From a virus, in the UHGV virus genome UHGV-0166683: a DNA stretch of 15,589 bases, one strand, 5' to 3'. The translations under genes and the position numbers were made by a program. Positions 1,249 to 15,589 of the stretch are shown here, piece by piece; positions within the stretch are counted from its first letter, which is position 1, and each line of letters opens with the position of its first letter. Below the pieces are notes generated by a model. That model saw only the letters and a program-made list of their open reading frames with translations. It searched no databases and was not told where the DNA came from.

Positions 1249-2244
1249 TCAGGCCAACACACCAATTGCCAGCGCACGATCGATAAAACGAAATATCAAC
1301 TCCAGCTGGGAGCCATACTTCTCTTCAAATGCCACGGTATCCGCATGCAGCTCGTCGTGATGCTTTCTGCACAAAGGCAGCACAAAGAGATCATGCGCTT
1401 TTGTACCCATTCCCCCCTGACCGTGGCCTATCAGATGGTGGGGATCATCAGCAGGCTTTCCACAACATGCACACGGCTGCGTCTTAACCCAGCGCGTGTA
1501 CTTTTCATTAACCCAGCGGCGACGTTTTGGGCGTAACATAAAAGACTCCGGCGACTCCGGATCCACTTTCAGCGCCAGCACCTTTTTAGCTTTATCCTGG
1601 ATGATGCTGGTGGCAGGAACCGAAGGCACAAGGTCACTTTCCCGGGTGACAGATGGCACAACAGGCTTCGGTAATCTCAGTGCCTTACGGGCTGCACTTT
1701 CCGGTAAGGCATCCGCCAGATCATTACGAACCAGCCACCAGCACAGTTCCGGCATTGTCACAACGTGACTGTCATCAAAACCGAGATCCCGACGCACGAC
1801 AGACAACACCCAGCGGGCACAGTTATCCGTTGCCATTGATTCCAGCCGTTCCGTGAACTGGTCACGCAGCTGGTTATCGCAGTGCCAGCACAGACGAATT
1901 GCTCCCGGAGCGTGCCGCATTGTGGTCATGTTCTCGCTGTGCCAGTCAGAATGAGGCCACTGACAGCCCTTTTCACGAAGTAACCAGCTTTCAAGACATT
2001 CCACGCCACCAGCACGACGGATCACTGCCTCATTGCGGAACACGGTCCGAACGGCAGGATCATCCGCCAGCGGTTGTGATGCCGCCGGAACGGCACCACT
2101 GGCGAAAGATGAATAACGTTCCGGCTCTGGCTCCAGCAGGACACGCCCCTGCATAAACAGGGGCATCAGCTCTGAACCTGGCCTGAACAATACGATCCCC
2201 ATACGCGGGGCAATTTCAGGCGTCAGTAGTGCTCTCACGGTCAC
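1249..2244 (-). CDS. DUF968-family phage protein with HNH-like Cys/His motif (YdfU-like)
   Basis: 331-aa ORF. C-terminal CACCGKPADDPHHLIGHGQGGMGTKAHDLFVLPLCRKHHDELH is a Cys/His-rich HNH-like signature typical of DUF968 proteins found next to Q in lambdoid prophages. Start lies 2 bp from the upstream gene stop. Confidence 0.7.
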   Translation of the reverse strand: MTVRALLTPEIAPRMGIVLFRPGSELMPLFMQGRVLLEPEPERYSSFASGAVPAASQPLADDPAVRTVFRNEAVIRRAGGVECLESWLLREKGCQWPHSDWHSENMTTMRHAPGAIRLCWHCDNQLRDQFTERLESMATDNCARWVLSVVRRDLGFDDSHVVTMPELCWWLVRNDLADALPESAARKALRLPKPVVPSVTRESDLVPSVPATSIIQDKAKKVLALKVDPESPESFMLRPKRRRWVNEKYTRWVKTQPCACCGKPADDPHHLIGHGQGGMGTKAHDLFVLPLCRKHHDELHADTVAFEEKYGSQLELIFRFIDRALAIGVLA

Positions 2245-2245
2245 C

Positions 2246-3043
2246 TCAATGAACGGTATCGAGTAGCTTTAACAGCTCAGGGAATCGGGATTCGAAGAAA
2301 TGCGGCTGCGTCTCGCGCGGATTTGCGGGACTGGTGATGTTCTTGCCGAACATGCAGCCTTTCGCCGTCAGCGACCAGAATTTTTTGATGTTGTTAATCG
2401 CGGTACGGCTGTATCGTTCGCGCTGCTCGACGATCCCCAGCTTCACCATCTGGTGATATGCCTGATTAGCTGTCAGGCGGATACCATACTGCTTCAGCAG
2501 TGCACTCAGTGACAGCGTGGGGCGGCTTGAGCCATCAGGCGCGTCAGCAGGAGCATCAATGGCATAGCGCGGTGCCAGATTCGGTAAGCCAACAGCCTCC
2601 TGGAGTTTCTGACAGGCTCCAAGCACTGAAGAGTTAGACAGATTTAACTCCCGGCGCATAAAGTCCAGCAGAATCACGCCAGCCTGCATCTTGTCAGCAG
2701 CCTGTCCGGATAATTTTTCAGGTGCGCTGGTTACCATGTCGAAAGTACGGATCACCTTCAGATGGAATGACGGGCTGATCCACATTGCATAGGCATACAC
2801 CAGTTCTTTGCAGACATACGTCCCCTGGTTATTTCCGCCACGAATAACGTTAACTGGCTCTATATTGACCGAGTTGCAAATCTGCAACTCGCTTATTAAA
2901 CGTTCAGTTTGCTCATTGCGGAGCCAGAATGCAGGCTTATGCTTATCCAGAGAACCGGCAGCCCTGTGCAGATCGTTCAGGCTGTAACGACCATAAGCAT
3001 CACGACGAACTTCAATACCATCAATGACCATCAGATTATTCAT
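2246..3043 (-). CDS. KilA-N domain protein (putative antirepressor/DNA-binding protein)
   Basis: N-terminal about 100 aa (MNNLMVIDGIEVRRDAYGRYSLNDLHRAAG ... KPAFWLRNEQT ... YVCKELVYAYAMWISPSFHLKVIRTF) matches the KilA-N fold pattern. SD-like AGAGGAGA precedes the ATG at 3043-3041. Confidence 0.7.
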   Translation of the reverse strand: MNNLMVIDGIEVRRDAYGRYSLNDLHRAAGSLDKHKPAFWLRNEQTERLISELQICNSVNIEPVNVIRGGNNQGTYVCKELVYAYAMWISPSFHLKVIRTFDMVTSAPEKLSGQAADKMQAGVILLDFMRRELNLSNSSVLGACQKLQEAVGLPNLAPRYAIDAPADAPDGSSRPTLSLSALLKQYGIRLTANQAYHQMVKLGIVEQRERYSRTAINNIKKFWSLTAKGCMFGKNITSPANPRETQPHFFESRFPELLKLLDTVH

Positions 3044-3062
3044 ACTTCGTTTCTCCTCTTAA

Positions 3063-3452
3063 TCAGGCGGCTGCACCCGCCGGTTTCTCGTACTTACTGA
3101 TAGTGATCTCGACCTTCCCTTCCGGGATAACCGGTCCCCACTCCACCAGCATTCTTTTCACCTGACTGTCGTCTTCCCACACACCCGCGTGGGTCAGGGC
3201 GTCAAACAGCGCCTTGTTATAGTTGTCCAGATCGCGGATCCGGTTATCCGGAGGAAACAACACGATCTCCACTGAAGCTGGTGCCGACGTTGGTTTCGGC
3301 AGACGGCGTAACTGCTCAATGATGGCGGCACACGCCGCGCCCTGGAATTTACGCCCCGCCGCGCTTATCAGGCTCTTACCTGCAAAAGCCCCTTTGTTGG
3401 GGTGTCGCCAGTACGTGTTCACGCTGGGGGGAAACGGCAGGATCAGCTTCAT
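3063..3452 (-). CDS. rusA: Holliday junction resolvase RusA (crossover junction endodeoxyribonuclease)
   Basis: 129 aa. MKLILPFPPSVNTYWRH ... DLDNYNKALFDALTHAGVWEDDSQV matches the RusA signature (PPS.N.YWR, DxDN acidic catalytic motif, DAL...G...DD.Q). ATGA start/stop overlap with the upstream gene. Confidence 0.85.
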   Translation of the reverse strand: MKLILPFPPSVNTYWRHPNKGAFAGKSLISAAGRKFQGAACAAIIEQLRRLPKPTSAPASVEIVLFPPDNRIRDLDNYNKALFDALTHAGVWEDDSQVKRMLVEWGPVIPEGKVEITISKYEKPAGAAA

Positions 3453-3775: not shown

Positions 3776-4425
3776 GCCGCCATCTCCCTGACCAGTTTTT
3801 CCGCCTGCTGGCGAACCTGCGCCAGAAAGGCCTCACCACATGCCTCAAGTTCATCGCGCCCGATGTAGCTGATTGCCGATCCCTTCCAGGTCTTGTCGAA
3901 AACAGCAATAGCACCAGCGAAGAAAGCACCTGTCGGCACCTGCTTCTCGTCCTTCGGTATAAACCAGGCAGGTAGTTCAAAACCAATACGCCCGCGAATA
4001 AAAGCAATATGATCTGCATCTTCCGGCCACCACACTTCGCTGGTAGCTGCTTTGATCAAGAAAACATAGCGCCCGCCTTTATCACGCATGGCACTGGCAT
4101 GCTTCATGATGTAACGCATGCCGGTGATGTATTGCCCCTCATGCTGACTGGCGCGGCTGTATGGGGGATTACCAAAGGCAGCACCTTTAAGCTCCGCAAG
4201 ACGTTCTGACCAGTCATGCGCCAGCGCGTTGTCTTCCGCCGTGTAATACGCGGCACATTTGGCGTTATCACCGTCAGTGAACAGATCCAGAACAAACGGG
4301 CCAAACAGGGTGTTAATTCCCCAGAAAATGTTGTCCGGCGTGCGCCACTGATCGCCCACTTCCTTCAGTTCATGGGCTGGTTTGTTCCGCAGTTCCACCA
4401 GCGCCTGCCAATATTTATTACTCAT
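3772..4425 (-). CDS. Phage DNA N6-adenine methyltransferase (Dam-like, YfdM-like)
   Basis: Contains the FGNPPY catalytic motif of N6-adenine methyltransferases. Start chosen at ATG 4425-4423, which overlaps the upstream stop (TAATG coupling); the six-frame ORF extends to 4458 (11 extra codons), so the start is ambiguous. Confidence 0.8.
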   Translation of the reverse strand: MSNKYWQALVELRNKPAHELKEVGDQWRTPDNIFWGINTLFGPFVLDLFTDGDNAKCAAYYTAEDNALAHDWSERLAELKGAAFGNPPYSRASQHEGQYITGMRYIMKHASAMRDKGGRYVFLIKAATSEVWWPEDADHIAFIRGRIGFELPAWFIPKDEKQVPTGAFFAGAIAVFDKTWKGSAISYIGRDELEACGEAFLAQVRQQAEKLVREMAA

Positions 4426-4919
4426 TAAGCCCCCACGTAATTCCCTGACAGATACCACTCATCACCCGATACAGCGCACTTGCTGCTTTTCCGTAAGCAC
4501 CGCTCACGGCGCGCCAGAAAATTGTTTCGTTCTGGCTGGGAGTGGCTTTCACGGAATGCCGCCATCCACACGGTTGCAGCACGACGGTATAAGCCCCTGG
4601 ACTCCAGTTCTTCAGCCTGGCGGGTCAGGCACAAAATTACCCGTGGATCGTTAGTGCCGACATAGAAATTGCGCACAGGTCTGGTTTCACGAACTGGTTG
4701 TGGTTCCGGCTCCTGCGCTCTCTCAGTCAGGCGCGGGAAATGTCTGCGTGTATCTCCTTCACAACGGTGAGCCACACGCCCACTCTGACGTAACTTGCTT
4801 GCTGACTGCAGAACGCGCTGCCGTGAGTAATCTGCAAAAGCATCCGCAATGTCTCCGGAAGTACACCCCGGATGGGCTTCAATGAATTTCTGAACGTCAT
4901 TTAACAGACTCATGATCAC
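4425..4919 (-). CDS. Putative regulatory protein, YfdN-like, with PerC-like C-terminal region
   Basis: 164-codon ORF (GTG at 4919 or ATG at 4913). C-terminal segment LTRQAEELESRGLYRRAATVWMAAF resembles the PerC/Pch-family core as I recall it. GTGA overlap with the replication gene stop. Confidence 0.55.
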   Translation of the reverse strand: MIMSLLNDVQKFIEAHPGCTSGDIADAFADYSRQRVLQSASKLRQSGRVAHRCEGDTRRHFPRLTERAQEPEPQPVRETRPVRNFYVGTNDPRVILCLTRQAEELESRGLYRRAATVWMAAFRESHSQPERNNFLARRERCLRKSSKCAVSGDEWYLSGNYVGA

Positions 4920-5857
4920 CCCCTGAATCCTGCCGGGATCTGGCTGTAGTCCACATTGTCGTAACTGGATTTGAAGTACGGGTCTTCGCGTTTTTCGGTG
5001 TACGTGCTTACGGACGGCGATAAGCGCAGGGAAAGCTCATCCCATTTTTCCCGCAGCTTCGACGGGCTGAGCACGTTACGGCACCAGAACGGATCGCGGC
5101 TGACGCGGCTGTACATCTCGCAGATTTGTTTGTGAGTACGACCATCCTGCACACACATCAGGCGAATTTCGTTTGCCCAGGCTGTCCAGTTCGGTTCTTT
5201 GGGACGAACCACCTCGCCGTCACATTCGGCAGCCTGCTCGTACAGGGCGATGATTTTTTTCCAGAGCCACTGTGCGCAGGTCAAATCATCCTGCGTCCCC
5301 CACTGGCGCTTTTTAGGGCTGAATACAACCGCATCAGGATGGCGAGTTAAAAAATCCTGTTCAGCCGTCTGCGTGTCCGGTTGCGAAGCGTCCGGACGAG
5401 AAGGTTTTTTATCTGACGGATCATGTTTTGATTTTACTGACGGATCCCCGCCAGATTCTGACGGGTGAAAACCTGCTTTTTTGCCAGATTTCGACGCATC
5501 AAATTTTGACGGGTCAGATTTTGATGCGTCAGATTTTGACGGGTCAGAATCTGACAGTTGAGAAAATGCCGCTGCCTGAAGCTTCGCAACGTTAAGCTGA
5601 TAAACATTCGACGCATTGCGGTTACCCTGGCGACGCGCCTTACGCGTTAACCAGCCTTCTGCTTCCAGCCGTGCGATAGCCGTTCTGACGGTACTCATCC
5701 CCGCGCCAATCTGACGGGCAATGGTTTCAATTGATGGCCAGCACACACCTTCGTCATTACTGAAATCAGCCAGGCGGGCCATAATTGCCACGCTGGATAA
5801 CTTCATGCCTGATGCAGCGCAACCATCCCATACATAGCCGGTTAATTTAGTGCTCAT
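4916..5857 (-). CDS. Phage replication initiation protein (O-like; N-terminal HTH, repeat-encoded linker)
   Basis: 313 aa. N-terminal region (WPSIETIARQIGAGMSTVRTAIARLEAEGWL) is HTH-like as in phage replication initiators. A central low-complexity linker SDPSKSDASKSDPSKFDASKS is encoded by 15-bp tandem repeats. SD AGAGG lies 6 nt upstream of the ATG at 5857-5855. Confidence 0.8.
   Translation of the reverse strand: MSTKLTGYVWDGCAASGMKLSSVAIMARLADFSNDEGVCWPSIETIARQIGAGMSTVRTAIARLEAEGWLTRKARRQGNRNASNVYQLNVAKLQAAAFSQLSDSDPSKSDASKSDPSKFDASKSGKKAGFHPSESGGDPSVKSKHDPSDKKPSRPDASQPDTQTAEQDFLTRHPDAVVFSPKKRQWGTQDDLTCAQWLWKKIIALYEQAAECDGEVVRPKEPNWTAWANEIRLMCVQDGRTHKQICEMYSRVSRDPFWCRNVLSPSKLREKWDELSLRLSPSVSTYTEKREDPYFKSSYDNVDYSQIPAGFRG
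5411..5556. repeat. Iteron-like 15-bp tandem repeats inside the replication initiator gene (candidate origin of replication)
   Basis: Three tight tandem copies TTTTGACGGGTCAGA / TTTTGATGCGTCAGA / TTTTGACGGGTCAGA at 5504-5548, plus degenerate copies containing CTGACGGAT/CTGACGGGT at 5413-5421, 5437-5445, 5458-5466 and 5490-5498. Confidence 0.5.
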
Positions 5858-5866
5858 GACCGACCT

Positions 5867-6205
5867 CTATTTCCCTGAATTTACGACGAAACTGTTCGAG
5901 CGGACTGAAGCATTCATGCTCATAACCTTCGCGGAGGTAGATAACCCGTTGTGTTTCCGGTTCCCAACGAATGACTCTGACGGGCACTCCGTAGTGATCT
6001 TTGAACCAGCGGTTAACTTGTCGCAAAGGACTGCCTCCTTCTGCCGGTTGAAATCACCCACAGCCCACTCTGCAAAGCTGTGGGTTACAATTTCCCTGTC
6101 ACCTGGTACATTCACTGCATAGCAATACTCCACCTTCGCTTTTCCACCCGGAACCGGAAGCGCAATCAGTTGCGAGCGACGGTAGTGTGTTGTTAAACTG
6201 TTCAT
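5867..6205 (-). CDS. Hypothetical small protein (112 aa) between the CII-like and replication genes
   Basis: Start ATG overlaps the stop of the upstream CII-like gene (ATGA at 6202-6205) and its stop lies 9 bp before the replication gene start, consistent with operon membership. Composition is not strongly protein-like and a competing plus-strand ORF exists, so confidence is low. Confidence 0.35.
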
Positions 6206-6765
6206 GCGTTAGTTTCTCCACAGTCACGACACGCCACGGCGCCCGGAGCTGCACACTCGCGGGCGTCACTACTTTCTGAAACGCAAAAGATTTTGTAGAC
6301 CAGTGCTGCATGCTCCTGCAGCTTCGAAATTGAGAGGTACAGCTCGTCGTTAATTGCTGTCTTCTCATGCGGTTCCACTACACCGTCTTCGATTGCTGAA
6401 CGAATCTGTTTTGAATAACTGCCGATCTGTTCAATGACCTCCAGCAGGCGTTGGTTGATATCGGCATTGTCCACATCCTCGACGTCAGGAAGAGACACAA
6501 AGACGCCATTTGCAGACTGCGCCACAGCATCAGCAATGAAGTGAGTGCCACCAGCACGCTGCAAAACCATTGCCCATCCCAGCGGGAAAATCTGATCGCC
6601 ATCTGCACGAAGGCGGTTGAATAAAGCGTTTTCTGTTACATCGAGCCAGTCAGCCGCTTCAGCGTAACCACCCGGCAACGCCGCGATAGTTTTTCTGACA
6701 GCTTTCACGTACCACTCAGGCTGTTTTTCTATTTTCCAGTGATGCTTACCCACGATTAGCCTCAT
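6202..6765 (-). CDS. Phage regulatory protein, CII-like (CP76-type architecture)
   Basis: 187 aa, second gene after cro-like. N-terminal HTH-like segment ([37 protein letters not shown]) followed by a helical C-terminal region, an arrangement I associate with CP76-type CII regulators. Family assignment is from memory. Confidence 0.55.
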
Positions 6766-6796
6766 CGTTCTGTGGTTAAAAATTGAAAGTGTTCTG

Positions 6797-6997
6797 CTAA
6801 TCTTTCGGATAGATATCCGGTCTTAAGTCAGATTTCGTAATTGCACCTGATGTGTATTGCTCAAGTTTTTTAGCCAGCACAAAACTGGCTTTTTTATAGC
6901 CATTGAAAACCAGCCGTAAGTAGCCAGGTGTTGAGCCAACTTTTCCGGCCAACTCGCCCTGCTGTTCTTTGGTTAAAGAGTCCCAATACGCTTTCAT
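6797..6997 (-). CDS. Cro/YdaS-like HTH regulator (66 aa)
   Basis: MKAYWDSLTKEQQGELAGKVGSTPGYLRLVFNGYKKASFVLAKKLEQYTSGAI is a small HTH protein divergent from the CI-like repressor. Start chosen at ATG 6997-6995, preceded by GGAGG. The longer ORF to 7300 would overlap the cI-like gene and the operators. Confidence 0.65.
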   Translation of the reverse strand: MKAYWDSLTKEQQGELAGKVGSTPGYLRLVFNGYKKASFVLAKKLEQYTSGAITKSDLRPDIYPKD

Positions 6998-7087
6998 ACA
7001 ATATGTACCTCCGGTGTACATATTACATGATTGAAATGAACCTTCAAGATACTTGTACCTTAACGGTACAAGGGTTTTAATTTCGTT
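6998..7087. promoter_or_regulatory. Immunity control region (oR-like) between divergent cro-like and cI-like genes, with two 17-bp operators
   Basis: Two 17-bp sites of form TGTACC-N5-KGTACA: TGTACCTCCGGTGTACA (7004-7020) and TGTACCTTAACGGTACA (7054-7070). The second sits inside a perfect 8-bp-arm palindrome CTTGTACC-TTAAC-GGTACAAG (7052-7072). Candidate pR -35/-10 on the minus strand (CTTCAA 7042-7047, ATATTA 7020-7025 as written on plus). Confidence 0.5.
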
Positions 7088-12129: not shown

Positions 12130-12340
12130 GCGTTTAAGTTTCTCAATCCCACATTAATTATCTCATCACACATGTAACAGGCCCAAACAGACTGCTCTGA
12201 GCGACGAACCGTTGTTGACCAGTAACGCCATAGAGTATATTCAGTAAGTGTTCCAATGTATATAAGAAATGCGCTGTGTATATTTTTAATTCAAAATAGT
12301 TTGAAGCACAATCATGAAACAGATTCTTATGAATACAAAA

Positions 12341-13456
12341 TTAAATTAAATCAAATAGCCCATGTTCATCTATAGCCTTTGAACTAATTAAGTTCGCGGC
12401 TTCTATGTCATTGTCACTTGCCTCAGAAATAAGGAAAAATGAATCAACATGATTTTGCAAAATAATTTCCTTATACTTCTTGAGCCATTGTAATTTACCT
12501 GTAGTGAACAATACTTTACGCGGTAGCAAAATACGGCTAAAAACTGATGGAAGATACTCACTTCTATTAAATGGAATAAAAGGGTCGCCTAAAGAAAGAA
12601 TAGTTAGACGATTAAATTCACCGTGCGAATTCAATTTTTCAGCTGATTTGGCTATACCACTTGGTAAAAAAACACCTGTCTTGATACCGTTGCGTAAAGC
12701 AACAACAGCCATCATTTTATCAAAGGCAGTACCTCCAAATAATAAGGAATATCCTTTTTTAACAGAAAGATCAATAGTATCAAGAACAACTTGTTTTTCT
12801 ATATCACTTGGTGACGTGCTCGAAATTATCGAAAGATCAAAATCAGTAAATAACTGCCCAGTATAATAAAGATTTTTGCCGGTGAAAGTTGACAACTTTA
12901 AAGGAAACATTTTATCATCATGCTTAATTTCAGATACATTAAGATCTGTTAAGGATGGATAGTTAAAGTTTGGTGAGGCTTTTCCGTGTTTATTATTTTT
13001 TGATGCCTGCGGACTAAAAACTAGAATTTCATTTTTATTATTACACAGGTAATCCTGTATCATTTTTTTTACAATATCCCAATCAAGACCACCGTGACCA
13101 CAACCTAAAGCTGGCAGGGTGATTGTTTTTCCATGTTTATTATCCAAATATTTCGAGAGCCAATGCAGTCCTTTTTCGATATATTCGTACTTAGACTTAT
13201 TTCTCCAATGATCCTTGGTGGGAAAGTTTATGATTTCTATTTCCTTACCATACGTATCATTACCTTTCCAAACAGCTGGTCTTCCTGGAGATATTTCTCC
13301 TTTTTTACACAGCAATACGTATTCATTATACATTTCAGGAAACTTATTCTTAAAAGCAAAAGCAACCCCTGCCCCCATTACACCAACACAATTAACTGTA
13401 TTAATTCTAATGTCAGCAGCATAATCGAAAAAATCACCATCAACATATCTAATCAT
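12341..13456 (-). CDS. darG: DarG-like macrodomain protein (putative antitoxin; N-terminal macrodomain plus about 200-aa C-terminal domain)
   Basis: Start chosen at ATG 13456-13454 with strong SD AGGAGG (ORF extends to 13582). N-terminal region GDFFDYAADIRINTVNCVGVMGAGVAFAFKNKFPEMY ... IINFPTKDHWR ... LPALGCGHGGLDWD matches the DarG/TARG1-type macrodomain as I recall it from M. tuberculosis DarG. AT-rich gene. Confidence 0.7.
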   Translation of the reverse strand: MIRYVDGDFFDYAADIRINTVNCVGVMGAGVAFAFKNKFPEMYNEYVLLCKKGEISPGRPAVWKGNDTYGKEIEIINFPTKDHWRNKSKYEYIEKGLHWLSKYLDNKHGKTITLPALGCGHGGLDWDIVKKMIQDYLCNNKNEILVFSPQASKNNKHGKASPNFNYPSLTDLNVSEIKHDDKMFPLKLSTFTGKNLYYTGQLFTDFDLSIISSTSPSDIEKQVVLDTIDLSVKKGYSLLFGGTAFDKMMAVVALRNGIKTGVFLPSGIAKSAEKLNSHGEFNRLTILSLGDPFIPFNRSEYLPSVFSRILLPRKVLFTTGKLQWLKKYKEIILQNHVDSFFLISEASDNDIEAANLISSKAIDEHGLFDLI

Positions 13457-14163
13457 AAAACCTCCTTTGGTCAGAGTATACATCCTTATTTCTGGCTCTT
13501 CAATTCTATTGTCAAAAACTTTTACAAAGTCTGCATCAGTAAAACTGATGGCGCATTTTAAAATTAAAATCAATATGTCCATATCAAACGTTATATTTGT
13601 TATTTTTTGTATTTATTATTCATATCCATCATGTGCTATTAAATCGCCCAAAAGAACATAATAAATTATGTGCACCACTTTCTTCTTATTGAATTTTGGA
13701 TTACATTACGATCTAAATTAGATCTTTTGCCAATATCATAAACATATGCAGCAAACGTTGCAACAAGCTGTTCTCATTCTAACAGTTAGTAGAATATAAA
13801 CTCTGTAATTAGCACACTGAATTCCCTTCATCTATGAGTTACAACATCCTTTAAGTGAATAGTATTGTTAGTTTAAATCTATTAATATCATTCATAAAAC
13901 TATTTTATATAGTTAAAGTCATTATAAATCCATCTGAATATATACAGATGGATTCTGCCAATAGTCTTTGCAGGTGAAGTGCATGTTATATATTTTTTAG
14001 GGAATATATTTTCTAATTATTTCTCAGATAAAAATTTGCAGAACGAAATTACTTTACATAATACCGAATGTTACAGATTATTTTATTGCATATAAGCATT
14101 GAACTAACCACTATCACAGTGACTATGTTAATCATAAAATCTGCATCAAATTCAAAAAGCTCC

Positions 14164-15510
14164 TCATAAACTGTTCCCCTGCAATCTTTGGAGAACTTCA
14201 TCCCGGAGATCATCGATCCCGTCAGAAACCTGAGCTAACCAAACTTGACTTAATGAGCCAATATCAGCCTTACTTAGGGCTACTAACATATTGATATCTT
14301 CAGAAGATGTAACTATATCGAACAACTGATTTTTATTCCTCCCTTTAGCTACTATTTCCCCCAATAAATCATCATACGTAACTAACATCATTATTTTTCT
14401 AACTAGATCGGTTTGTATGACTGGCAGATCTTCTGTCAAAATTCGTTGTAGCATCGCAAGTGACTTCCTAGGATGCTCTCCATCTGCCTCATGCATGTAA
14501 TTATTATTCCAACGTGTTTTAGGCCCTTTGCCTATATCATGCAAATAAGCGGCCAACTCCAAAACTTCCTGATGAATAGAGTCTAATTGATAAAACTCTG
14601 GTGAATTAACTACAAGACTAGCCACTCGTCGACTATGAGAGCCAACATCTTCATTATGAGGCCCGTAGCTCGTCCCCAATCCATCGATATCTTCAAGCTC
14701 TTGGATGGAGGAGAAATTACCACGAATTGCACTTAGAGCATCACTAATACTTTGAAATTTTGGCCTCGTTTCTCGTTGAAATGAAGTTACATATTCAATA
14801 GCTTCATCAAAAAGCATTTTTAACACTACCGGTCCCGTGACTAAGGATGAGGACCAGTTTCCAGGTTGATAATAATAATGTTGAAAATCACCCTCAACAA
14901 TATTTGGTGGAACAATACCTTTGTTCTGGAAAATACTCCTCACAATATCAGACATAGAACGATTCCATGTAATTATCTGATTTATTTCGCTTAAAGAGAC
15001 ATGATCTGGCAGCAAAAGTTCTGCCATCTTTTTATGCCTCTGAGTCTCGTCAGCATAACCCCATGCATTATTATCTATGGTAGCCCAATCTAATACATCA
15101 AGCTGGTCAGCTTGAGTATTACCAGAATAAAAGTTCGGTGGATTAACTGTATTTGCGGAAGCATCTGTAAAATATGACCCATTCCTTGTTTCGAGTGATA
15201 ATATAGAAACTGAAAGATAGATAATAAATTGCTGATCTACATTTTTTTTATGAAGAACAGACAATTGCATGGGCGTTTTTTTTGCAAAATAAAAAGGAAC
15301 ATAATCATGAACACAACGACCATTCGTATTAGGCACCTGCATCACTGCCCTACGCCCCTGTATTCCTTCATCAGCAACATTCACATGTGATATACGACGT
15401 GCAATTTTCTGATTAGTCGAAAACAGCCCAGTTTCAATTATTGATTCAAGATTATCTACTGACGTAAAGTGATATGCATTTCGGTGTCTATGGTGAACAG
15501 GAACTGTCAT
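14164..15510 (-). CDS. darT: DarT-like DNA ADP-ribosyltransferase (DUF4433) fused to a C-terminal HD-phosphohydrolase-like domain
   Basis: N-terminal about 215 aa carries DarT hallmarks: YHFTSVDNLESIIETGL, HDYVPFYFAKKTPMQ, and the catalytic-Glu context KKMAELLLPDH (compare Mtb DarT HFTHVDNLPSIL, GDYVPFYFGPRSPM, RRMAEFLLRGH). C-terminal about 230 aa contains HD-domain motifs SHSRRVASL ... LELAAYLHDIGKG (HD codons at 14541-14536). AT-rich gene. Confidence 0.7.
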   Translation of the reverse strand: MTVPVHHRHRNAYHFTSVDNLESIIETGLFSTNQKIARRISHVNVADEGIQGRRAVMQVPNTNGRCVHDYVPFYFAKKTPMQLSVLHKKNVDQQFIIYLSVSILSLETRNGSYFTDASANTVNPPNFYSGNTQADQLDVLDWATIDNNAWGYADETQRHKKMAELLLPDHVSLSEINQIITWNRSMSDIVRSIFQNKGIVPPNIVEGDFQHYYYQPGNWSSSLVTGPVVLKMLFDEAIEYVTSFQRETRPKFQSISDALSAIRGNFSSIQELEDIDGLGTSYGPHNEDVGSHSRRVASLVVNSPEFYQLDSIHQEVLELAAYLHDIGKGPKTRWNNNYMHEADGEHPRKSLAMLQRILTEDLPVIQTDLVRKIMMLVTYDDLLGEIVAKGRNKNQLFDIVTSSEDINMLVALSKADIGSLSQVWLAQVSDGIDDLRDEVLQRLQGNSL

Positions 15511-15525
15511 GTACTGATGAATCCC

Positions 15526-15549
15526 CTAATGATTTTGGTAAAAATCATT
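15526..15549 (-). promoter_or_regulatory. Perfect 10-bp-arm inverted repeat 16-39 bp upstream of the darT-like start (candidate operator or 5'UTR hairpin)
   Basis: TAATGATTTT-GGTA-AAAATCATTA (arms 15526-15535 and 15540-15549), immediately upstream of the SD-like GGGGA and the ATG at 15510. Confidence 0.4.
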
Positions 15550-15589
15550 AAGTTAAGGTGGATACACATCTTGTCATATGATCAAATGG

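Follow-up and report, generated by a model that had tools for sequence, protein, structure and literature searches.

The spacer of a prophage-borne DarTG locus holds remnants of a darG and a darT gene and separates a toxin gene from an antitoxin gene of another lineage

Results and Discussion

The DarTG locus and its flanking genes

The window analyzed here, the whole 15,589-nt stretch of virus genome UHGV-0166683, contains a DarTG toxin-antitoxin locus carried on a mobile element, at the end of an E. coli e14-like prophage at icd, where the prophage integrase adjoins it. Read along the minus strand, the locus consists of a darT gene with an HD domain (darT+HD), a gap of 707 bp (13457-14163), and a macrodomain darG gene (Table 1). 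A preliminary description of this DNA had pointed to about 700 bp of AT-rich sequence between darT-like and darG-like genes, and this was borne out by a GC content of 0.28 in the spacer, compared with 0.33-0.43 in the flanking genes, and by the Pfam and PADLOC assignments of both genes. Its premise that toxin and antitoxin genes normally overlap also proved true for the DarT+HD/DarG family, in which canonical relatives overlap by 1-4 bp; the adjacent or overlapping bicistronic arrangement expected of DarTG is absent from the window.

The toxin matched the Pfam DarT domain (PF14487) with an E-value of 5e-40 over residues 13-213 and an HD domain over residues 290-361, and was also called DarT by PADLOC. 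In an alignment with Thermus DarT (7OMV), a Glu of the window toxin (KKMAELL) lies opposite an Ala of the deposited chain; we take this Ala to be the E160A catalytic mutation and the aligned Glu to be catalytic. The antitoxin matched Pfam Macro (3e-17) and PADLOC DarG (5e-58), and alignment with the Thermus DarG macrodomain (5M31) showed that the first Lys of TKKHW is retained, as TKDHW. By our own count this residue is K80 in the Thermus protein, presumably the catalytic Lys of DarG.

The repeated element at the end of the window is an annotated ISVsa5 family transposase, whose end displaces the native GGGGGA Shine-Dalgarno sequence of darT and its native promoter region. Seven IS-free E. coli loci align to the window only as far as 15513, and the native sequence upstream of darT reads ...atgggggatacATG. 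The E. coli strains 181.1, APEC O2-211 and MS1679 carry the locus in IS-free form.

Table 1. Positions of genes, gene remnants and sequence elements of the DarTG locus in the window
Feature	Coordinates	Strand	Basis or remark
darG(A), 371-aa antitoxin with N-terminal macrodomain and C-terminal domain	12341..13456	-	actual start codon: ATG at 13456
Spurious N-terminal extension of the darG ORF	13457..13582	-	C-terminal codons of the darT(A) remnant
Putative darG promoter and ribosome-binding site block	13461..13503	-	promoter scan, 10-locus alignment
Putative Shine-Dalgarno GGAGG	13461-13465	-	constant in 10/10 loci
-10-like TATACT	13475-13480	-	17-nt spacing to the -35-like hexamer
-35-like TTGAAG	13498-13503	-	promoter scan
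darT(A) pseudogene remnant, codons ~256-444 of a 444-aa DarT+HD	13474..13935	-	tblastn, DNA alignment
Palindrome GATCTAA-A-TTAGATC	13710..13724		exactly on the 46-nt deletion junction in the darT(A) remnant
Palindrome ATCCATCTG-N8-CAGATGGAT, 9-nt arms	13928..13953		adjoins the junction of the two remnants
darG(B) pseudogene remnant, codons ~8-92 of a ~380-aa B-type macrodomain antitoxin	13936..14167	-	tblastn, DNA alignment
darT(B), 448-aa DarT ADP-ribosyltransferase with C-terminal HD domain	14164..15510	-	Pfam, PADLOC; frame intact
IS10/ISVsa5-type insertion sequence end	15514..15589		3 bp upstream of the darT(B) start codon

The flanking genes belong to different DarTG lineages

Comparison with related loci showed that the toxin and antitoxin of the window are not one co-inherited cognate pair, the toxin being of a B lineage and the antitoxin of an A lineage. 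The window DarT is 73-77% identical to the DarT of canonical B loci, which bear their own overlapping DarG(B), and only 42% identical to DarT(A). The window DarG is 84-85% identical to the DarG of the canonical A-type loci L002 and L041, and only 43-45% identical to B-type DarG. Between the two lineages, identity is 42% for DarT and 43-45% for DarG. The ~450-aa DarT+HD toxins have at least 958 homologues.

Both parental pairs exist elsewhere. The B pair is intact and overlapping in E. coli JBJNDR01, Vibrio MIKK01 and Serratia JAROCW01, and the A pair overlaps in an E. coli P2-like prophage (where DarT is split) and on the Klebsiella plasmid NZ_CP124697. In L009, L012 and L015 the gene next after darT(B) is darG(B), and in L002, L024, L038, L039 and L041 the gene just before darG(A) is darT(A). 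In the comparison of homologous loci that the preliminary description had suggested, an intact darG(B) or darT(A) stands at the matching position in canonical loci.

The same scar recurs, at 613-717 bp, in Citrobacter (L004 and L018), in Pectobacterium (L008) and in contigs of metagenome or viral origin (L005-7, L020, L027 and L037); four diverged lineages (E. coli, Citrobacter, Pectobacterium and metagenomes) carry it with common indels. The spacer matched 10 of 5,426 E. coli genomes, every time at a DarTG locus, which indicates that it is not a repeated element. A mobile-element origin was rejected on this count. In Pectobacterium L008, darT(C) is followed by aa 4-173 of a darG as a remnant (E 1e-29 to 1e-32), by darT(B), by the scar and by darG(A); this locus is a second case of the same gene-loss process.

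Remnants of two genes account for the spacer

The part of the spacer next to darT(B) derives from darG(B). A vestigial darG(B) ATG overlaps the darT(B) stop codon (ATGA, 14164-14167), and the same ATGA overlap was seen when the DNA was aligned with the junctions of canonical darT(B)-darG(B) pairs. A tblastn search of DarG(B) against the window returned collinear matches to aa 8-26 and aa 64/76-94, and the frame translations ELFEFDADFMINIVTVIVV and HFTCKDYWQNPSVY match GDFFEFDADIMVNTVNCVGVMG and NFPTKDHWKKPSEY of DarG(B). The best single score in the window is a weak 25.8 bits, compared with a maximum of 21.6 in 1000 shuffles, and the call for the window thus depends partly on the DNA alignment and on better-preserved relatives, namely L005 and L007, where the match is continuous over aa 8-90 (E 2e-4). 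A 16-nt deletion in this remnant is common to all four chimeric loci compared, and three of the four also share a 9-nt gap, which is larger in L008. By score alone, B-type and A-type darG queries did not separate the type of the remnant; its assignment to the B type follows from the FEFDAD signature, from its place immediately behind the darT(B) stop and from how its DNA aligns with canonical B junctions.

The two thirds of the gap nearer to darG derive from darT(A), the cognate toxin type of the downstream DarG(A). With DarT(A) of L002 and L041 as tblastn queries, aa 278-326 matched 13872-13726 (53% identity) and aa 374-438 matched 13669-13475 (43-45%), in collinear blocks with E-values of 1e-10 to 1e-11. 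The best score of 53.9 bits compares with a maximum of 24.3 in 1000 dinucleotide shuffles, and the gap DNA is about 70% identical to intact darT(A). This remnant is broken by stops, by frameshifts and by internal deletions of 46 and ~35 nt, and its HD motif AAYLHDIGK now reads AAYVYDIGK (13726-13752). The two remnants join at about 13928-13945.

Homology to DarG(B) and DarT(A) explains essentially the whole interval, and the order that remains on the minus strand is darT(B), codons ~8-92 of darG(B), codons ~256-444 of darT(A), and darG(A). Both remnants are truncated genes with stops in all frames and at least two deletions each, as expected of pseudogenes, and the GC content of 0.28 compares with 0.35-0.40 in the intact homologues. 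Amongst the options raised in the preliminary description, a decayed third gene is the supported one and an understatement, a darG being represented by its 5' third and a darT-HD gene by its 3' 40%.

The darT(A) remnant also affects the annotation of the antitoxin. The spacer had been described as lacking any ORF of 60 codons or more, which is mechanically incorrect: the darG-containing ORF is open upstream to an ATG at 13582 (413 aa), and a 64-codon TTG ORF lies on the plus strand at 13467-13661, neither being conserved in related loci. RefSeq models of this antitoxin are 410-413 aa long, and their extra N-terminus MDILILILKC...RMYT matches DMLILIAKC...RMYT of intact DarT(A). The extension is in frame through a 1-nt insertion, ATACT[C]TGACC, and the extra base is missing from all nine other aligned loci. 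The 410-413-aa 'macro domain-containing protein' models of E. coli in RefSeq thus carry a false N-terminus from a dead toxin gene.

The spacer evolves about neutrally between two constrained genes

Pairwise identities of the spacer were 0.86, 0.62 and 0.62, lower than those at third codon positions of the flanks (0.89-0.92, 0.72-0.73 and 0.66-0.74). The Jukes-Cantor distances of the spacer calculated from such identities (~0.16 and ~0.5) lie near the flanking dS values of 0.13-0.18 and 0.45-0.9. The spacer therefore evolves about neutrally except for its last ~60 nt, while both flanking genes are under purifying selection (omega 0.07-0.33). An unconserved spacer at homologous loci, which the preliminary description had itself set against a functional reading, is what about 90% of the interval presents.

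For darG(A), dN/dS was 0.07-0.15 in both domains, and the C-terminal domain is present and conserved (omega 0.10-0.14). For darT(B), dN/dS was 0.11-0.33, with values for the DarT domain of 0.16-0.33 in chimeric loci versus 0.05-0.10 in canonical B loci. The darT(B) frame is fully open in the window, L004, L005, L008 and L037. In L018 the darT ORF ends about 5 codons early, and in strain MDR_56 darT is split by IS50R. The A-type DarT of the P2-like prophage is also split.

Neither a small RNA nor a small unannotated ORF, both suggested earlier for this gap, is supported. An Rfam search of 13300-14300 (E<=1) gave no match, and the transcribed strand of the gap, folded at full length, gave z-scores of -1.68 in the window and +0.55 in L005, which are neither significant nor shared; the sequence is also not conserved. 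Six ORFs of at least 25 codons lie entirely within the gap; every one of them has a frameshift or an interruption in two or more of the four relatives compared (L005, L018, L004 and L008), and none is preserved across these loci.

The palindromes that had been reported, GATCTAA-A-TTAGATC and CATCTG-N8-CAGATG (13931-13950), are both correctly described, the latter lying inside a longer palindrome (Table 1). One arm of this longer palindrome comes from darG(B) codons ~86-88 (CCATCTG is also found in canonical L009) and the other sits where the darT(A)-derived part begins; this palindrome is imperfect in L005, and L004 and L008 lack it. The site at 13710-13724 is not palindromic in L005 (GGTTTAATTTAGATT), L004 or L008. 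Counting arms of at least 7 nt and loops of at most 10 nt, the window spacer has 6 distinct perfect palindromes, compared with 1.2 expected from dinucleotide shuffles, of which ~0.3% reach 6. The closest relatives L005 and L018 have 0 and 1, respectively. The excess is thus real in the window lineage, lineage-specific and not conserved. The palindromes were rejected as functional sites, given that the two named ones are degraded or absent in L005, L004 and L008 and that the excess is missing in the closest relatives.

A conserved block precedes darG

The last ~60 nt of the gap have a mean pairwise identity of 0.84-0.85, compared with 0.42-0.77 in the rest. In this stretch the promoter scan found TTGAAG-17-TATACT (13503->13475), which scores 9/12, a match to consensus only, at bases that in canonical loci are also under coding constraint. 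The -35-like TTGAAG is invariant in nine of the ten aligned loci (TTGAGC in L039). All six chimeric loci and L002 have TATACT as the -10-like hexamer, whose form is TATAAT for L024 and L038 and TACAAT for L039. The 17-nt spacer between the hexamers is fixed in length in all ten loci and variable in sequence. Together with GGAGG, these hexamers are probably darG's own promoter and ribosome-binding site. Promoter-like sites are present on both strands of the region, and their number (15) does not exceed the 15.6 expected from shuffles. An independent promoter for the macrodomain gene, as proposed in the preliminary description, is plausible only for the last ~60 nt of the gap. The terminator scan found no terminator-like site on the minus strand inside the gap, so that read-through from darT(B) into darG is possible.

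Origin of the spacer and alternative explanations

Altogether, these observations make it very probable that the spacer is a composite pseudogene of two genes, formed when two DarTG systems were joined and drifting thereafter, and that a hybrid operon was left. One illegitimate recombination or deletion would have joined darT(B)-darG(B) with darT(A)-darG(A), both formerly overlapping pairs, with roughly the final three quarters of darG(B) and the initial ~60% of darT(A) being lost. What the spacer itself presents is ordinary gene decay, and the scar has drifted neutrally, with stops, frameshifts, deletions, loss of GC and the gain of lineage-specific palindromes; the gap is explicable without any new element. 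No intact tandem of all four genes, darT(B)-darG(B)-darT(A)-darG(A), turned up in genome, viral or metagenome contigs, plasmids or phages (which yielded 2, 17 and 3 loci, 1 canonical A locus and 0 loci, respectively), and the course of events, by deletion inside a tandem or by recombination of separate loci, is for this reason one that we can only infer.

In the surviving operon, the toxin stands with a non-cognate antitoxin, which shares only ~44% identity with the toxin's cognate one. Such a pairing may be tolerable because, as published work suggests, the target of the DarG macrodomain is the reaction product, ADP-ribosyl-thymidine in DNA, rather than any one toxin. In EPEC, the DarG macrodomain alone abolishes DarT toxicity, and the C-terminal domain sequesters the cognate toxin (Lawaree 2020, PMC7003065). 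SCO6735, an unrelated macrodomain hydrolase, removes thymidine-linked ADP-ribose (PMC9411070). On this view, DarG(A) would cross-neutralize DarT(B). The last ~60 nt, once the 3' end of darT(A), may give darG(A) an expression that is independent of translational coupling to the toxin.

A different explanation is that the whole 0.7-kb gap is a selected regulatory region, with a promoter and a small RNA or small protein that tune the toxin:antitoxin ratio. Its length of 613-717 bp in four lineages with dS up to ~1, the excess of perfect palindromes in the window copy and the several promoter-like sites on both strands would fit this explanation, which we nevertheless judge very unlikely: the gap has many indels and diverges no more slowly than synonymous sites do, has no Rfam match, shared fold or preserved ORF, has palindromes that are missing in the nearest relatives and promoter-like sites that do not exceed shuffles, and is covered essentially throughout by darG(B) and darT(A) homology. 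The persistence of a 0.6-0.7 kb pseudogene over dS ~0.5-1 is long-lived for bacteria and leaves room for the spacing to have some selected role. That the gap is foreign DNA (a decayed insertion sequence, MITE or other mobile element) placed between adjacent darT and darG genes can be practically dismissed, as the flanking genes are not a cognate pair and the homology of the gap is to darG and darT genes, correctly ordered and oriented, even though it is AT-rich with many palindromes and IS elements do target the locus (IS10 at 15514 in the window and IS50R in darT of MDR_56).

Another explanation is a dying locus, in which effective control or use of the toxin has ceased, darT(B) is becoming a pseudogene and there is no current toxin-antitoxin or defense function. 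The loss of the darT Shine-Dalgarno sequence and promoter to the IS10 end in the window, the interrupted or shortened darT genes of MDR_56 and L018, the split A-type DarT of the P2-like prophage and the higher DarT-domain dN/dS of chimeric loci than of canonical B loci all agree with this. We consider it unlikely, given the open darT(B) frames in five loci including the window, a darT(B) dN/dS well below 1 across dS 0.4-0.6 with the presumed catalytic Glu kept, and the strong constraint on both domains of DarG(A). Also unlikely, and offered tentatively, is the idea that DarTs of different subfamilies are stacked upstream of one macrodomain acting as a general antidote, with redundant antitoxins being shed and the scar kept to uncouple antitoxin expression. 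The scar's own promoter and the lost translational coupling would then set a workable toxin:antitoxin ratio for a non-cognate pair. This idea draws on Pectobacterium L008, where two intact toxins, darT(C) and darT(B), precede darG(A). If true, DarTG would be a modular multi-toxin defense array instead of strict two-gene pairs.

Implications and comparison with known systems

The locus represents a natural experiment on antitoxin specificity, as a DarT+HD toxin has been handed down in E. coli, Citrobacter and Pectobacterium together with an antitoxin of only ~44% identity to its own, with purifying selection on both genes. If DarG(A) does neutralize DarT(B), this would support the notion that macrodomain antitoxins act mainly via repair of the DNA adduct and can be swapped between systems. 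Such swapping bears on the recombination of defense modules, and is also relevant to phage-encoded DarG-like enzymes that may disarm many DarTs. Additionally, the locus is suited to testing whether the C-terminal toxin-sequestering domain is needed in a non-cognate pair, and it offers a candidate internal antitoxin promoter. Within the literature consulted, a search for DarT-HD fusions and for hybrid or tandem DarTG loci found nothing relevant.

The DarTG systems of Thermus and M. tuberculosis were reportedly described by Jankevicius in 2016, with DarT as an ADP-ribosyltransferase of thymidine in single-stranded DNA and DarG as its macrodomain partner, and LeRoux is said to have placed DarTG in phage defense in 2022. 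The window resembles DarTG2-type systems in that its toxin has a DarT (PF14487) domain with Glu at the presumed catalytic position, its antitoxin has an N-terminal macrodomain with Lys at the presumed catalytic position and a C-terminal domain, and the toxin gene lies upstream on the same strand of a mobile element. Unlike in those systems, the genes are 707 bp apart and of different subfamilies, with only fragments of their cognate partners between them, and the toxin differs from the characterized DarTs of ~210-240 aa by its C-terminal HD domain.

With the canonical A and B DarT+HD/DarG loci, the window shares the ATGA overlap signal and the putative -35/-10/Shine-Dalgarno block before darG(A), both of which are retained; in those loci, however, the toxin gene overlaps that of its own antitoxin and there is no gap. 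The truncated, frameshifted and collinear fragments, their neutral drift and their loss of GC are like those of bacterial pseudogene remnants and orphan toxin-antitoxin genes. The window differs from such orphans in that the loss is reciprocal, involving one antitoxin and one toxin, and has left a complete hybrid pair that is inherited across several genera.

Genomic setting and gene content

Up to position 15513, the right end of the window is 100% identical to seven complete genomes of E. coli, where the region is bordered by chromosomal icd on one side and by intE/xisE of an e14-like prophage on the other. The two genes bordering the gap are annotated there as 'macro domain-containing protein' and 'DarT ssDNA thymidine ADP-ribosyltransferase family protein'. 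Alignment to the Thermus structure 7OMV located a conserved Glu in the window DarT (KKMAELL), and in the window DarG the Lys of TKDHW aligned to TKKHW of structure 5M31; we take these residues to be the catalytic E160 and K80, respectively. The DarT family is large, with 958 homologues of the window protein at E<=1e-3. Proteins of this architecture, about 448 aa with an HD (metal-dependent phosphohydrolase) domain C-terminal to DarT, occur widely among Gammaproteobacteria and Betaproteobacteria, and a literature search of incomplete coverage returned no description of them.

Features of the window and of the Pectobacterium locus
Sequence	Feature	Coordinates	Strand	Details
Window	darG(A)	12341-13456	minus	371 aa; Pfam Macro; PADLOC DarG 5e-58
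Window	Gap (scar)	13457-14163		707 bp
Window	darT(A) remnant, aa 264-334 of P2-like prophage DarT	13687-13475		42% identity, 6e-11 (tblastn)
Window	darT(A) remnant, aa 174-222 of P2-like prophage DarT	13872-13726		53% identity, 3e-9 (tblastn)
Window	Altered HD motif	13726-13752		AAYLHDIGK to AAYVYDIGK
Window	TTGAAG hexamer	13498-13503
Window	Palindrome	13534-13550
Window	Palindrome	13656-13671
Window	Palindrome	13710-13724		GATCTAA-A-TTAGATC
Window	Palindrome	13928-13953		9-nt arms
Window	Palindrome	13988-14009
Window	darT(B)	14164-15510	minus	448 aa; Pfam DarT residues 13-213 (5e-40), HD 290-361; PADLOC DarT match
Window	IS10/ISVsa5-type element	15514-15589
L008	darT(C)	1876-3219
L008	Gap				781 bp
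L008	darT(B)	4001-5347
L008	Scar				613 bp
L008	darG(A)	5961-7076

A toxin and an antitoxin of different subfamilies

The window DarT and DarG belong to different DarTG subfamilies. Relatives of DarT(B) at 73-77% identity occur in E. coli (L009), Vibrio (L012) and Serratia (L015), and the gene of each overlaps that of a 380-aa partner, the B-type DarG, to which the window DarG is just 43-45% identical. The window DarG is instead 84-85% identical to the A-type DarG of a P2-like prophage (L002) and of a Klebsiella plasmid (L041), whose DarT proteins are 42% identical to that of the window. Thus, the window pairs toxin B with antitoxin A.

Remnants of both missing partners

Similarity of three further E. 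coli genomes to the window was restricted to 12339-13668 at 83% identity, a stretch comprising the macro gene and about 210 bp of the 'spacer'. In one of them, the genome with the P2-like prophage L002, a DarT gene overlaps the macro gene by 4 bp, so the matching 210 bp represent the 3' end of a darT. A tblastn search with this DarT gave the expected match on the window's own darT, with just 39% identity, and two extra collinear matches within the spacer; the best score there was 53.9 bits, against a best of 24.3 in 1000 dinucleotide shuffles of that part of the spacer. At the DNA level darT(A) and the gap aligned at about 70% identity with two deletions (46 and about 35 nt). The Klebsiella plasmid (NZ_CP124697) carries an intact 444-aa DarT(A) overlapping a DarG 84% identical to the window's, and in its numbering the window blocks correspond to codons 278-326 and 374-438; an additional 22-codon match (codons 256-277) was found in the viral or metagenomic contigs L005 and L007. 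With the frame-1 reading added, these matches trace the darT(A) remnant over the HD-domain half of the gene, beginning near codon 256 and reaching the final codon, 444; its HD motif is altered. The A-type DarT of the E. coli P2-like prophage, located between tail sheath and tail fibre assembly genes, itself appears to be broken within the DarT domain, the annotation dividing it into one CDS of 89 and another of 340 aa (L002 5116-6449, L022 and L023); the plasmid copy is unbroken.

If toxin B formerly had its own antitoxin, the start of that gene would be expected directly after the darT(B) stop, and it was found there. This stop still lies within TTATGA, the same ATGA overlap as in canonical B loci. 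Translation just past the stop gives ELFEFDADFMINIVTVIVV compared with GDFFEFDADIMVNTVNCVGVMG of DarG(B), and further along the gap HFTCKDYWQNPSVY compared with NFPTKDHWKKPSEY. Collinear tblastn matches placed DarG(B) aa 8-26 at spacer positions 2-58 and aa 64/76-94 at positions 144/180-236; the best match in the window scored 25.8 bits, and none of 1000 shuffles exceeded 21.6. In the better preserved L005 and L007, aa 8-90 matched without a break (E 2e-4). When four loci with the spacer were aligned to three canonical darT(B)-darG(B) junctions, DNA homology was clear, with a 16-nt deletion common to all four and an extra 9-nt gap common to three of them and larger in L008. The switch from the darG(B) to the darT(A) part falls at about 13928-13945, adjoining the palindrome with 9-nt arms, and the two remnants jointly cover essentially the entire interval.

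Other readings of the gap, and a conserved block upstream of darG

The preliminary description held that the gap contains no ORF of 60 codons or more, which is literally untrue: the darG frame continues without a stop as far upstream as an ATG at 13582, and at 13467-13661 the plus strand has an ORF of 64 codons starting with TTG. The resulting 413-aa ORF owes its existence solely to a 1-nt insertion, ATACT[C]TGACC, which places darG in the reading frame of the final 36 or so codons that remain of darT(A). The window alone carries this insertion among ten aligned loci, and the RefSeq models of 410-413 aa are therefore over-extended. In these models (window 13457-13582; L001 4242-5474) the surplus N-terminal 39-42 residues are the dead C-terminus of darT(A); the conserved darG start is the ATG at 13456, with GGAGG ahead of it. 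The suggestion of a small unannotated gene fails, as all six ORFs of at least 25 codons wholly within the gap carried a frameshift or interruption in two or more of four related loci. A small RNA fares no better: there was no Rfam match at E<=1, and whole-gap folding z-scores were -1.68 for the window and +0.55 for L005. Nor is the gap repeated or mobile sequence: just 10 genomes among 5,426 of E. coli gave matches to it, in every case at a DarTG locus.

Both palindromes first noted in the gap were confirmed at their stated positions, and the second, CATCTG-N8-CAGATG, extends to 9-nt arms. With arms of at least 7 nt and loops of at most 10 nt, the window gap contains six distinct perfect palindromes against 1.2 expected, a number reached by about 0.3% of shuffles. 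The gaps of L004 and L037 contain five each; L005 has none and L018 one, despite gaps 86% identical to that of the window. GATCTAA-A-TTAGATC lies exactly at the 46-nt deletion junction of the darT(A) remnant. Clusters of 3-6 substitutions separate the window from L005 at 13534, 13656 and 13710; L005 there resembles intact darT(A), and each cluster perfects a formerly imperfect palindrome. The pattern resembles, and may result from, template-switch correction of quasi-palindromes in unconstrained DNA; it does not look like a conserved site.

Sliding-window identity among five loci was 0.42-0.77 over most of the gap and 0.84-0.85 in the last 60 nt or so (13447-13506). Across ten loci (six chimeric, four canonical A-type), TTGAAG is unchanged in nine, L039 having TTGAGC. 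A second hexamer follows after 17 nt: the six chimeric loci and L002 all have TATACT, L024 and L038 have TATAAT, and L039 has TACAAT. The intervening 17 nt are fixed in length and variable in sequence, and a GAGG/GGAGG Shine-Dalgarno and the darG ATG are retained. The bases of the block are noncoding in chimeric loci, and their conservation suggests a regulatory role, as a putative antitoxin promoter that formerly lay inside darT(A), at its 3' end. The TTGAAG/TATACT pair scored as a 9/12 match in a promoter scan in which such sites were no commoner than in shuffles. The scan found no terminator-like site on the minus strand of the gap, and transcription could therefore also read through from darT(B).

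Distribution and evolutionary rate of the scar

Every DarT(B) relative at 83-93% identity that could be located on a contig was followed by an AT-rich gap of 613-717 bp and then an A-type DarG. These chimeric loci were found in Citrobacter freundii (L004), Citrobacter sp. (L018), Pectobacterium (L008) and metagenome or viral contigs (L005-7, L020, L027 and L037), several of the latter being e14-like prophages at icd. Four independent lineages could be aligned across the entire gap and have a common junction with differing later indels.

Spacer identity to the window was 0.86 in L005, 0.62 in L004 and 0.62 in L008, in each case below the third-codon-position identities in the flanks of 0.89-0.91, 0.72-0.73 and 0.66-0.74. 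Jukes-Cantor spacer distances from these pairwise identities (about 0.16 and about 0.5) were close to the Nei-Gojobori dS of the flanks (0.13-0.18 and 0.45-0.9), and the scar is therefore evolving neutrally. Homologous stretches of intact genes have a GC of 0.35-0.40 and the scar one of 0.28, which fits AT-biased decay. Omega was 0.07-0.15 for DarG(A), in the macrodomain and C-terminal domain alike, and 0.11-0.33 for DarT(B), canonical B loci being somewhat lower (0.05-0.11). Between the same pairs of chimeric loci, dS of darT(B) was below that of darG(A), for L004 and L008 0.36-0.38 compared with 0.93-1.0; possible reasons are recombination histories or codon-usage constraints that differ between the two parts of the hybrid operon.

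Insertion sequences and the state of the toxin gene

The IS10/ISVsa5-type element ending the window has its terminus, CTGATGAATCCCC..., 3 bp ahead of the darT(B) ATG, where IS-free genomes read ...atgggggatacATG; the native GGGGGA Shine-Dalgarno and promoter region have therefore been removed. The IS end presumably resembles that of IS10 with its outward promoter pOUT, from which darT(B) may now be transcribed. In E. coli MDR_56 (L003, NZ_CP019903, 5065-7954), IS50R splits darT(B) in an otherwise identical locus, leaving an 'HD domain-containing protein' CDS and a partial DarT pseudogene, a second independent insertion in the toxin. Of eight E. coli copies examined, two thus carry an insertion sequence affecting the toxin, which fits a costly toxin in a sample too small to show it. 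In Citrobacter sp. Cu233 (L018 2952-4295) the darT(B) ORF ends at 4283 and similarity to the window DarT continues to 4295, suggesting a premature stop about 5 codons ahead of the usual end.

The hybrid operon and known systems

The operon runs from toxin B through the scar to antitoxin A, with both genes intact and under purifying selection. The DarG(A) macrodomain would strip ADP-ribose from DNA thymidine irrespective of the enzyme that added it, and so neutralise DarT(B); with two adjacent systems one antitoxin would be redundant, and deletion of darG(B) and darT(A) could be tolerated. Such cross-neutralisation draws support from published results: the EPEC DarG macrodomain by itself abolishes DarT toxicity, the C-terminal domain working by binding its own toxin (PMC7003065), and SCO6735, a macrodomain hydrolase outside any DarTG pair, cleaves thymidine-linked ADP-ribose (PMC9411070).

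Pectobacterium sp. CHL-2024 (L008, JBIXKT010000002, 1876-7076) provides a second instance of the same process. Its third toxin, DarT(C), has 447 aa and is 46% identical, and the gap behind it holds a darG remnant (aa 4-173, E 1e-29 to 1e-32). This three-cassette chain carries two intact toxins and then one intact antitoxin.

The spacer itself is ordinary, a pseudogene scar. A hybrid operon of DarT and non-cognate DarG inherited across genera was not described in the literature that our search, incomplete in coverage, returned. The parts of the window locus are DarTG2-like, that is, of the macrodomain type, and the locus departs from DarTG2 in two defining features, the overlapping arrangement and the cognate pairing.
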